From Octopus vulgaris (taxonomy: Eukaryota): a stretch of 64,000 bases of DNA. Positions 3,345 to 20,080 of this stretch are shown here, piece by piece (position 1 is the stretch's first letter; each line of letters begins with the position of its first letter). Position numbers and translations under genes: made by a program. The stretch spans positions 12,586,001 through 12,650,000 of the forward strand of contig OX597814.1 of the NCBI GenBank assembly GCA_951406725.2. Direction: 5' to 3'. The notes under the pieces were generated by a model. The model was not told the DNA's origin. It searched no databases and saw only the letters and a program-made list of their open reading frames with translations.

Positions 3345-3428
<84 letters not shown>

Positions 3429-3568
3429 GTTGTATACTGTCAACATAACGTGACAGTCCCGCTGTTTAGCCCTAGGAAGCATCGACGCTTCCTGTCGCCT
3501 TTGACACATTTCTTGTGTCCTTATATTTGCGAAGGGGAGACAAGCACCCCTACCAGCCAGGATTCACA

Positions 3569-3614
3569 CCTGAAGACATGCATGTTTCTGGGTCTCACCC
3601 GTCATCAGTCCAGG
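3569..3614 (-). ncRNA. Type I hammerhead ribozyme, canonical core
   Basis: Minus strand: CCUGGA CUGAUGA c GGGU-gag-ACCC a GAAAC-AUGCAU-GUC UUCAGG. Stem I is 6 bp (one G-U), stem III is palindromic (ACAUGCAUGU), and the cleavage site is GUC. Confidence 0.88.
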
Positions 3615-3626
3615 ATAGTGAGACCT

Positions 3627-5263
3627 TTCTATTTTTTATAGGCACAATGGCCTGACTGAAGAGTGGACATAACAATACAATGCAGGACATGGGATACATA
3701 TAATAAAAATAAAAATGATAATATGAAATTAAATGAATTATTAACGATGAATTAAATGAAATGGCTTACGAGCCCCCCCCCAAAGCTCGCAGTTTCATTT
3801 ATATTACAGTTATATTATCTGGGGTGTTCGTCCGTAACGTAAACGAGTAATTCATCTTGCTCTATAACTCCGGGCAAACTGTCATATCGAATGTAATGCG
3901 CTATGGACACAGCTGTCTCTGAAAATAAATTTCTTAATCTATTCACCGTCTCTCTTTCCACTATTGCAGCCTTTGTTTTGTCATCGTACATTCTCGGGTT
4001 CAATTTCACTCTCGTTAGATTTTTCGTTACTGCAAATTTTTTCTCAATTTCTTTATCTTTTGTGTACAATATTACAGATCTGAGATTCTTTCCTTTGGGT
4101 CTTCCCCCTTCCTTGCATGTTATCAGACATTCTTCCACTCTTGTTGACCATTTTATCGCTTCCTCCCAACTTGAACCTTCACTCACTTTAGTTGCTGTAT
4201 CTCTCCCTTCGTGCGTTCGATCCTCTGTCTCGCCCGCATACTTCTTTTTAGTTTTTTTTTCTTTTTTTGGTCTTTGGGTGGTGATTCCACCCGTGTTCGC
4301 TTTCTATCCTCTTTTTCTTCTGTTCTTTCATCTTCTGTCTCCTTCACTAACTCGTCGTCATTTTCCATATTATCTCCTAAATCCTCTGTCAAAGCTCTTA
4401 TTGTCTCCTCCAGTGTCGTCTTCCTTCCTTGTATTTCTCCTTCAGGACACACATCCTTCATGTGCCCTCTTCTCTTACATTTATAACACACCGGAGGTCT
4501 CCCCTCCACCACGACTCTCAGTCGTGTCTCGTCGGCGAATACCAACTCCTCTGGGATGTTATACAAATCTGGCATGGTTATGTGGACTAAGGCTTCCACC
4601 GCATAACCCCACCAGTATATTTCATTCGACTTTTGCACCTTAAGTATGTCCACGTTCTCCTTGTAGTTGTAGATTATTGCAGCTACTATTCTTTCGGTAT
4701 CAAGTTCCGGTGGGATTTTGCTTCTTCGTATCCTCACTTCTCTTTTTCCACAATAACTAGGGAGTAAAATCCATTTTTCCGATCTCAACACTGTCGTTGC
4801 GTTCCTTTTCGCTTCATCTTCATTTTCGAAGCGAACGTTTACCGTAGCGTATTTTCTACATCTAATGTAGAAGGTAGTTCTTCCTTTTATTTCTTGTAGA
4901 CATTTTTCAATCCCTTCTACTTCTGCTACTTCTATTCTCTTTGAGACCACATTCCATGTTCTGAATGTTATGGTTTTTTTCTCCGCTTTTTTCACTTCGT
5001 CTTCAGGTGGTGTAACCCTCAGACAGTTTTCTTCCCTCTTGAAGCTGTCGTAGTATTTCCTCAGATTTTCTTTTTCGATAATTATTTCTTTTAACTGTAA
5101 TTCGTTCGCAGCTAGGCTTTAGCCTGCTGCTCCCGCACAAGTTTGGGCTTGCATACCCAACAAAGAATTCAACAATTCAACACGACGCAACAGTTTTCAA
5201 CAACAATAATCAGCAAAATCCAACTCACAACCGCAAATCCGAAAAACCGACACAAGCACTTCC
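3627..5263 (-). mobile_element. ORF1-only non-LTR retroposon (HAL1-like; L1/Tx1-type ORF1) with 9-bp TSD
   Basis: TSD GTGAGACCT at 3618-3626 and 5264-5272. A-rich 3' end (minus strand CCTATAAAAAATAGAA). ~110-nt 5' UTR, a single ORF, ~190-nt 3' UTR, and no EN/RT sequence. Confidence 0.7.
3815..5154 (-). pseudogene. Gag-like ORF1 protein (~445 aa; possible RRM-like region plus CCHC zinc knuckle), disrupted
   Basis: ATG at 5154 (MQAQTCAGAA) is in frame with track ORF 4183-4995, with one stop at 5119-5121. Knuckle CYKCKRRGHMKDVC follows ..VVVEGRPPV. A frameshift in the A-tract near 4251-4268 joins ORF 3815-4186. Confidence 0.8.
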
Positions 5264-5461
5264 GTGAGACCTGCTAGTTGAGATGCCTGTCTAGCCTTCG
5301 CAAATATATATATTTACAGTGAAATCTATTCACTGGTCACCGTAATTAGAAATATTGAATTTCTAAATGTCTCAAAGAGACATGTGCGGTGGTGGAGCGA
5401 TAGAGTGGTTGTATACTGTCAACATGACGTGACAGTCCCGTAAGGGAATTACACACACACT

Positions 5462-5714
5462 GATATATACAATTGTTAAAGAGGACAACAAACGTTTAGG
5501 CAAGACAAACATATCTACACATATACATTATCATTAATGGAAAAAGTTCAGTCTTACAGCTGTTTCTGGGATTTCGAGAACGGAATATCCCATACTCTGG
5601 GATATCCCAGAAACAGCTGTAAGACTTTGAACTTTTTCTGATAATAATAGTGTATATGACTTGAAACGTTTGCCTTGACTTAACGCTTGTTGTCCTCTTT
5701 ATCAATTATATATC
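5462..5714. repeat. Inverted repeat of PLE-like termini containing hammerhead 3' halves
   Basis: AAAAAGTTCAGTCTTACAGCTGTTTCTGGGAT ... ATCCCAGAAACAGCTGTAAGACTTTGAACTTTTT. Outer arms AAAGAGGACAACAA / TTGTTGTCCTCTTT. Confidence 0.7.
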
Positions 5715-19961: not shown

Positions 19962-20080
19962 CATTACGGCCATATCACGTTAAAAGCACCGGTTCTCGTC
20001 CGATCACCCAAGTTAAGCAACATCGAGCCTAGTTACTACTTAGATGGGTGACCGCTTGGGAAACCTAGGAGCTGTAAGCG
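19962..20080 (+). rRNA. 5S rRNA gene copy, probably a dispersed pseudogene
   Basis: TTACGGCCATATCACGTT.AAAGCACCGGTTCTCGTCCGATCACC.AAGTTAAGCAAC.TCGAGCCTAGTTA.TACTTAGATGGGTGACCGCTTGGGAAACCTAGG.GCTGTAAGC is full-length metazoan 5S. The first two nt are altered, there is no oligo-T terminator, and it is a single copy. Confidence 0.9.

Follow-up and report, generated by a model that had tools for sequence, protein, structure and literature searches.

Non-LTR retroposons that encode only ORF1, the first open reading frame (ORF) of a long interspersed nuclear element (LINE), include HAL1 (half-L1), which is non-autonomous and carries the hallmarks of target-primed reverse transcription (PMC5753468). 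LINEs of the Tx1 clade and their dependants insert into other repeats or into genes that encode small nuclear RNAs (snRNAs): Tx1L is found in Tx1D, Tx1-Mar and SINEU in Mariner-N4_AMi, and Keno in U2 (PMC4494074; PMC4640811). Here, these systems are compared with an ORF1-only element in a 64,000-nt stretch of the Octopus vulgaris genome (assembly GCA_951406725.2, contig OX597814.1, positions 12,586,001 to 12,650,000; hereafter the window). The element (3627–5263) and the repeat that hosts it both lie on the (-) strand. It belongs to an old ORF1-only lineage whose insertions fall at a single position of a repeat that carries a hammerhead. Sequence features suggest that this HAL1-like lineage and its L1/Tx1-type partners probably target transcription starts of the snRNA type, with the host promoter driving their expression.

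The element is a full-length but dead copy of 1,637 bp. As an earlier sequence-only reading of the window had proposed, it is bounded by a target-site duplication (TSD), with identical 9-bp repeats at its 3′ side (3618–3626) and its 5′ side (5264–5272), and it is ORF1-only; an ORF2 remnant was found in 0/30 element loci. The A-rich 3′ end described in that reading held in part: an AATAAA-type signal is present at the terminus (3627–3640, family end AATAAAGAGAA), but the end is a fixed AATAAAGA-type terminus and not a variable poly(A) tail. ORF1 (3815–5154) runs from an ATG at 5154 to a stop at 3815 and is interrupted by an early stop at 5121–5119 and by a frameshift between 4276 and 4237. In natural copies, both window frames are joined in a single ORF of 389–467 aa.

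The product, which had been called gag-like, is an RRM-RRM-CCHC LINE ORF1 and not a capsid gag. Two RRM-like domains are followed by a CCHC knuckle near 4488, an acidic/basic disordered linker and a conserved C-terminal α/β domain of ~110 aa. Fold matches were to tandem RRMs, and the protein is ~30% identical to ORF1 of local L1/Tx1-type LINEs. Atlas matches fell in CCHC and ZCCHC3-like clusters of molluscs and chordates. The zf-CCHC match in the window ORF1 (E 0.0016) is below the Pfam cut-off; a word-seeded protein search with ORF1 gave no match, and a profile search gave 2,183 matches, all unnamed. For the C-terminal domain, generic ferredoxin-like matches only (best Z 5.6) were obtained, with nothing at E≤0.001 in Foldseek. 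A gag of a DIRS/Ngaro or Penelope-like element was rejected on the basis of the discrete 1.6–1.8 kb units with TSDs, the RRM-RRM-CCHC fold and the homology to LINE ORF1.

Hallmarks of retroposition are present across the lineage, namely TSDs of 9–22 bp, the AATAAA end and copies hypermutated from A to G; variable poly(A) occurs in some families only. On the sense strand, A>G changes account for 163/175 differences of L129 (L129:1276-2625) and 168/209 differences of L128 (L128:1222-2583) from their close relatives. This is expected of RNA that is edited by ADAR and then reverse-transcribed, and points to an edited RNA intermediate. Values of dN/dS were 0.06–0.15 across the N-terminal 240 codons in 8/8 ORF1 pairs, and the ORF1 lineage is under purifying selection. 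The main ORF1-only group (17 sequences) formed a long-branched clade separate from the autonomous ORF1s, a placement that carries a long-branch warning. HAL1 and the octopus element are alike in being non-autonomous and ORF1-only. HAL1 is described from mammals and the passage of PMC5753468 that describes it states no target specificity, whereas the octopus element is site-specific; set against HAL1 by description, the octopus ORF1 is distinguished by its RRM-RRM-CCHC layout with an extra C-terminal domain and by its own old clade.

The host repeat resembles a retrozyme. Mussel retrozymes are repeats of 350–390 bp with a type I hammerhead (PMC7229834), and a Penelope origin of retrozymes has been proposed (bioRxiv 10.64898/2026.07.22.740005). 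In the window, the host unit consists of a part upstream of the insertion (5273–5462), which includes a repeat (5404–5440) of 3425–3461, and a part downstream (3425–3617), which ends at a (TA)n microsatellite. Excision of the element leaves an empty unit of 370 bp with termini identical at 36/37 positions. The sequence-only reading had given ~370 bp and a 37-bp terminal redundancy; the size stands, but the redundancy arises where a partial tandem, made of a circularly permuted monomer of ~350–365 bp (spacing 363 bp in L068), overlaps itself. The alignment with the hammerhead element at 21–165 noted in that reading was reproduced with a score of 148, as compared with a maximum of 102 among 200 shuffles. 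The latter element belongs to an empty host unit of another subfamily (8–165, (-) strand; PSE-like motif, resembling a proximal sequence element, at 149–144, predicted +1 near 92, hammerhead 66–21), and its hammerhead sequence also flanks inserted elements elsewhere (L068, L108).

The type I hammerhead of the interrupted unit (3569–3614) comprises stem I (3614–3609), the core (3608–3602), GAAA (3588–3585) and a palindromic helix III, with the cut at 3575/3574. It is co-oriented with the element and begins 12 nt past the element 3′ end, as had been read before; it is not fully canonical, since it carries C10.1-A11.1 where G-C is expected. Rfam gave no hammerhead in the window nor in 3430–3700, and the assignment is based instead on motif and covariation. 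In 49 distinct motifs, gathered without a pairing filter from related sequences that do not represent independent events, stems I/II/III are paired in 93/97/99%, as compared with 69/84/76% when the sequences were shuffled among one another. At positions 3-8, the pair is C-G in 34 motifs, U-A in 9, U-G in 5 and C-A in 1, and helix III is perfectly palindromic in 28/49. The hammerhead family is, judging by this pairing, under structural selection. An alternative, ribozyme-blocking hairpin in which the TSD pairs with loop II (-18.4 kcal/mol, z -0.39) was rejected, since it is not significant and its pairing bases are private to the window copy.

With its type I hammerhead and a non-coding unit within 150–450 bp, GC below 50% (45.7%) and a tandem, mostly partial, arrangement, the host agrees with animal non-LTR retrozymes in size and motif. 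It differs in that most hosts are partial tandems with Penelope-like inversions and tails. Besides a (TA)n site and a tail of ~55 nt, host loci often include a copy that is inverted and 5′-truncated, features that are hallmarks of Penelope-like elements (10.1101/2021.04.23.441226). Beside the host unit, 86-nt inverted arms at 5465–5713 include what seem, by eye, to be hammerhead remnants of another Penelope-type repeat.

A search for the element in the 2.8 Gb assembly gave 296 candidates, of which 40 were scored and the 30 best loci retained. In 28/30 of these, the window copy included, the element lies just 5′ of a hammerhead (exceptions L016 and L019), so that the recurrent, non-random insertion next to hammerheads suspected from the single copy is borne out by the flanks. 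The hosts of these copies fall into several subfamilies that share only about 60% identity. A host profile matched a flank at E<1e-5 in 21/29 copies, as compared with 0/29 distant control flanks at E<0.1; the profile was built from one subfamily, and six further copies were placed by eye in a divergent type of host. Among more divergent relatives (ORF1 search, 13,692 candidates, 150 listed, from which 60 single loci and 14 array stretches were chosen by eye), the host 3′ flank was present in 25/51 scorable single loci; in the other 9/60 the 3′ end could not be called, and a wrong AATAAA was used in scoring L087. Insertions are always co-oriented and lie 15–40 nt above the hammerhead core. Empty units with a single target site, also anticipated, exist: a search with the downstream half of the host (2,261 first-look candidates, 40 scored, 30 loci) gave 21/30 empty loci, 8 element-bearing ones (the window's included) and 1 uninformative, as sorted by eye.

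Elements that are 92% alike occur in hosts that are 62–63% alike (L002/L004, L017/L022; shuffled baseline 48%), supported element clades contain mixed host types, TSD lengths range from 9 to 22 bp and differ among copies, and two or three different families are stacked in tandem at one site (L003, L007, L065-L071). The insertions are thus largely independent. Alternatively, a few insertions could have been amplified as cargo of the Penelope-type repeat, with targeting overcounted. Composite copies of element plus host, 5′-truncated or inverted (L037, L038, L047, L057, L104), and one host-pure cluster on the tree fit such a course. The TSDs and nick offsets differ, though, host divergence is far above element divergence, arrays mix families, and independent autonomous LINEs occupy the same site. 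Amplification accounts for some copies and not for the site; it is largely refuted as the sole cause and, as a general explanation, extremely improbable.

Young ORF1-only families with variable poly(A) form head-to-tail arrays of 4–7 units (L061-L064, L069, L112-L118). One such array type is found in sequence that resembles the coding part of a LINE ORF1, with a TATA-like word 30 nt above the array, and an ORF2-bearing LINE (L137/L178) shares both its site and its 3′ tail. In another array type, the TATA that lies 30 nt above belongs to a CCAAT/TATA repeat.

Autonomous LINEs were sought by a zf-RVT search (30 loci) and in 20 longer stretches chosen mainly for long ORFs. Three of the 30 zf-RVT loci end at the host site; most of the remainder are members of another zf-RVT family (most of L135-L151), whose flanks are unrelated. 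Seven LINEs with an ORF2 of 1,134–1,140 aa (L170-L176) end just above a hammerhead, and L170 and L172-L175 have host on both sides and a 17-bp TSD. Their ORF2 includes APE (PF03372), reverse transcriptase (RT, PF00078) and zf-RVT (PF13966) domains, and its best solved relative in the PDB is human L1 ORF2p (E 5e-66). The APE-RT-zinc ORF2 and the preference for repeats and multicopy RNA genes, both traits of the Tx1 clade, indicate that the partners are of L1/Tx1 type. Thus, of the autonomous ORF1+ORF2 partner with the same ends that had been postulated, the type is present at the same site; a partner with the exact junction of the window subfamily was not found.

In one partner family of 30 loci, 24 have host or host-head junctions, 3 lie in U2 and 3 elsewhere, a tally that was read by eye with a query that held ~35 nt of host and so favoured host copies. 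In L209 and L211, the 3′ end of the LINE directly abuts the first base of U2, and in L252, L275 and L276 it abuts that of U1. One LINE family occurs in both the host and U1, with 5′ ends identical at 97/100 positions and 17-nt target heads that are 5/17 alike. The proposal that the ribozyme is the target is not supported: host types differ in the sequence that is duplicated on insertion, and the same LINE family is found at the U1 +1. Since full-length partners insert at the matching position of U1 and U2, the insertion spot is likely to be the transcription start of the repeat. In both the Tx1-clade systems and the octopus, an APE-type LINE and its dependant share a mobile-element or snRNA-gene target. 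Tx1-clade targets are sequence-defined, whereas the octopus group uses the +1 of unrelated sequences with a common promoter layout, chiefly the hammerhead repeat. Keno and Utopia insert internally in U2.

Within a U1 cluster (G000:C18:48997000-49011150; L275, L276), several autonomous LINE families are arrayed with short U1 5′ heads between them. The 3′ flanks of L199, L202 and L213 show the partner LINE at targets other than the host, U1 and U2; those of L199 and L202 are alike and may be another multicopy promoter.

The promoter-like layout of the host was compared with that of snRNA genes. In 47/47 U1/U2 genes (8 motif types), ATCA[GT][TC], which we take to be the PSE, is present at -56 to -61. 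A matching hexamer lies 54–59 nt above the junction in 8/8 host types (background 0.65%), and a TATA-like stretch near -30 occurs in most of them. In the window, the PSE-like hexamer is at 5332–5337, with motif and spacing as in the U1/U2 promoters of the genome, and a TATA-like (TA)n stretch at 5303–5312 is ~30 nt above the predicted start. The predicted host +1, as placed by the PSE spacing and by the starts of carried heads, is at 5279–5284, 16–21 nt above the element 5′ end. The PSE at U1/U2 spacing suggests that the host promoter is of snRNA type, with SNAPc-dependent initiation predicted. A snRNA-type promoter has been attributed to newt satellite 2, as cited in PMC2220036. The U6 genes were left out of the PSE count, most of the 11 loci being pseudogene-like. 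Tandem U6-variant genes at G000:C1:139423575-139428422 (L261-L263) have, by eye, a TATA and an octamer, together with an upstream motif whose spacing is different.

Several copies carry at their 5′ ends short heads from a donor site. Heads of A-type host, the host type of the window, are present in L016, L020 and L022, and L080 has an F-type host head that starts exactly 58 nt below the hexamer; the head of L019 consists of the initial ~20 nt of U1, and that of L215, which lies within a U2 insertion, is of host type. All six start at or within ~3 nt of the predicted +1, and thus mark the 5′ end of host RNA there and not at the ribozyme cut. Both co-transcription and template jump have been discussed as sources of such heads (PMC4494074; PMC3414825), and under either the heads would mark the same point; the proposals made for SINEU include 5′ extensions and its transcription from the flanks (PMC4494074). 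The 5′ junction of L029 has an 18-nt extra head, which may represent the 5′ end of a further transcript that is targeted.

A strict TATA at -26 to -33 was found at 6/12 non-host sites of related families. Counted by type, it is present in 5/11 non-host site types as compared with a background of 7.4% (p=7e-4), which suggests a wider start-site preference.

Such a preference for position has to be weighed against recognition of sequence, by which a partner endonuclease and pairing of a read-through 3′ RNA tail with the nicked DNA would direct insertion to a loose ATC-type motif in homologous hosts, the promoter being incidental or serving transcription only. Many junctions do begin AT(C), families tend to keep to one host type, 3′ ends without variable poly(A) fit templating on read-through RNA, and known Tx1 specificity is ascribed to the endonuclease (PMC4494074). 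Yet one family uses targets that are 5/17 alike, heads record moves among host types, U1 and U2, host type E begins GGAAG or AGTAG and not ATC, and the hexamer distance stays at 54–59 nt over host types. Sequence-directed targeting is accordingly regarded as unlikely, and insertion at snRNA-type starts is preferred.

A number of points weigh against the preferred interpretation. The positions of RNA starts, 3′ ends and cleavage are all read from sequence, and junctions and TSDs were called partly by eye, automatic TSD calling having failed in about a quarter of loci, which were then read by eye or excluded. The counts of 8 host types and 47 snRNA genes are not independent, since the former are homologous to one another and the latter represent only 8 motif types. 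The hexamer of the A-type host is 53–55 nt from the head starts, 1–4 nt under the U1/U2 range, and the window subfamily nicks about 7–13 nt downstream of the predicted +1. A strict TATA is absent from 6/12 non-host sites, many targets begin ATC, and a residual sequence preference is possible. Some clades are host-pure (C-type L004/L005/L010), and part of the targeting count may reflect amplification of an already filled host. Finally, no ORF2-bearing element with the exact junction of the window subfamily was found; of 8 matches to one such junction, 7 are known ORF1-only loci and the other (L277) has an ORF1-only-type tail. The 3′ tails of ORF1-only and partner elements share a weak 17-nt motif only (best E 0.019).

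Processing by the host hammerhead in the manner of R2 had also been suggested, with the element RNA cut ~50–70 nt past its 3′ end and, in tandem hosts, upstream as well. The constant co-orientation 15–40 nt above the core, the structural selection on the hammerheads (stems 93–99% versus 69–84% after shuffling; C3-G8/U3-A8 34:9) and the fixed 3′ ends without variable poly(A) agree with such processing. The host tail that it predicts, extending ~50–70 nt to the cut, was found in 0/7 off-target copies (L016, L019, L076, L078, L092, L126, L131), although internal priming could hide it, and heads begin ~53–58 nt below the PSE-like motif, at the predicted +1 and not at a cleavage site. Hence, ribozyme cleavage does not appear to define the ends of the copied RNA. 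Furthermore, U1/U2 lack a ribozyme and yet are used by the same elements. The five composites named above, which resemble joint Penelope-type copies of the element and its host with a truncation or inversion within the element, run through the cut site. R2 and its short internally deleted elements (SIDEs) are promoter-less and co-transcribed with their target, and the ribozyme of R2 is its own 5′ end (PMC3414825); in the octopus, the ribozyme belongs to the host and is located 3′ of the element, and the ends that are copied are not marked by it. Processing of this kind is very unlikely, and the hammerhead would be a bystander belonging to the host. Since the composites extend across the cut, read-through RNA likely exists, giving a second route of spread. 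Four runs presumed to be RNA (contigs) covered host, element and empty-site joints with starts and ends not resolved, and were not used as evidence.

The preferred interpretation can be set out as a series of steps. The first, observed directly, is repeated site-specific insertion with TSDs of 9–22 bp, together with tandems of mixed families, and ORF2-bearing LINEs at the same site and at the U1/U2 +1. The second, observed for the lineage, is passage through RNA, as seen in two A-to-G hypermutated copies and accompanied by purifying selection on ORF1; for its mobilisation, the ORF1-only element likely depends in trans on L1/Tx1-type LINEs. Third, a U1/U2-type promoter in the host would give element RNA that starts at the host +1, carries a host head of 15–25 nt and ends at the element's own AATAAA. 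Fourth, the site would be recognised mostly by position, through promoter-bound factors or open start-site DNA, and not by sequence. Fifth, read-through RNA of element plus host would sometimes be copied via the host's own Penelope-type route.

It is conceivable, though we hold this more specific proposal somewhat less probable than its converse, that the LINE clade and its ORF1-only satellite dock on RNA polymerase (Pol) II pre-initiation complexes (SNAPc/TBP) and so insert at the snRNA-type +1. Related tethering has been described for Dictyostelium TRE5-A, whose ORF1 binds TFIIIB subunits in vitro (PMC5006619). Like TRE5-A and yeast Ty3, which are tethered by TFIIIB, the octopus element lies at a fixed distance from a promoter complex; the former insert upstream of Pol III tRNA genes, whereas the latter is placed, by its predicted Pol II snRNA spacing, at or just after +1. 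Drosophila HeT-A is likewise ORF1-only, forms head-to-tail arrays, uses the promoter of its upstream neighbour and is targeted by its Gag (PMC5537684). HeT-A adds to chromosome ends, whereas insertion of the octopus element is internal and leaves TSDs, and the promoter that it would use is a foreign one. If docking at retrozymes mainly, and also at U1/U2, were true, each new copy would be born with a promoter, and retrozyme-borne copies would also ride the Penelope-type mobility of the host. Ty3/TRE5 targeting would then have an equivalent at Pol II, in which the conserved ORF1 would likely serve as adaptor. Should the broader, preferred interpretation hold, it would add a new targeting rule for animal LINEs, defined by position relative to a Pol II snRNA-type promoter and not by target sequence. 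The persistence of a promoter-less ORF1-only element and the selection on its ORF1 would then be explained. The insertions would also show where the promoter and start of an invertebrate retrozyme are likely to lie, neither of which was identified in the retrozyme literature searched, and the intact copies with a 1,140-aa ORF2 would offer a ready system for promoter-directed integration.

The separate parts have precedents in HAL1, Tx1-Mar/SINEU, Keno, TRE5-A/Ty3 and HeT-A, and the combination of retrozyme, U1 and U2 +1 was not found in the literature searched. LINE targeting of retrozymes or of the snRNA +1 was likewise not found there, Repbase, subscription papers, supplements and Coats 1994 lying outside that literature. 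A paper on Octopus vulgaris repeats lists active L1-Tx1 families; by a term search, hammerhead, ribozyme and snRNA are absent from its main text (PMC13282606).

Elsewhere in the window, an RT-like LINE fragment (1597–2309; E 6e-12 to ORF2) has 131-nt inverted arms that are 97% identical, probably the result of a 5′ inversion, and a match to 5S rRNA (86.7 bits) is located at 19962–20080.

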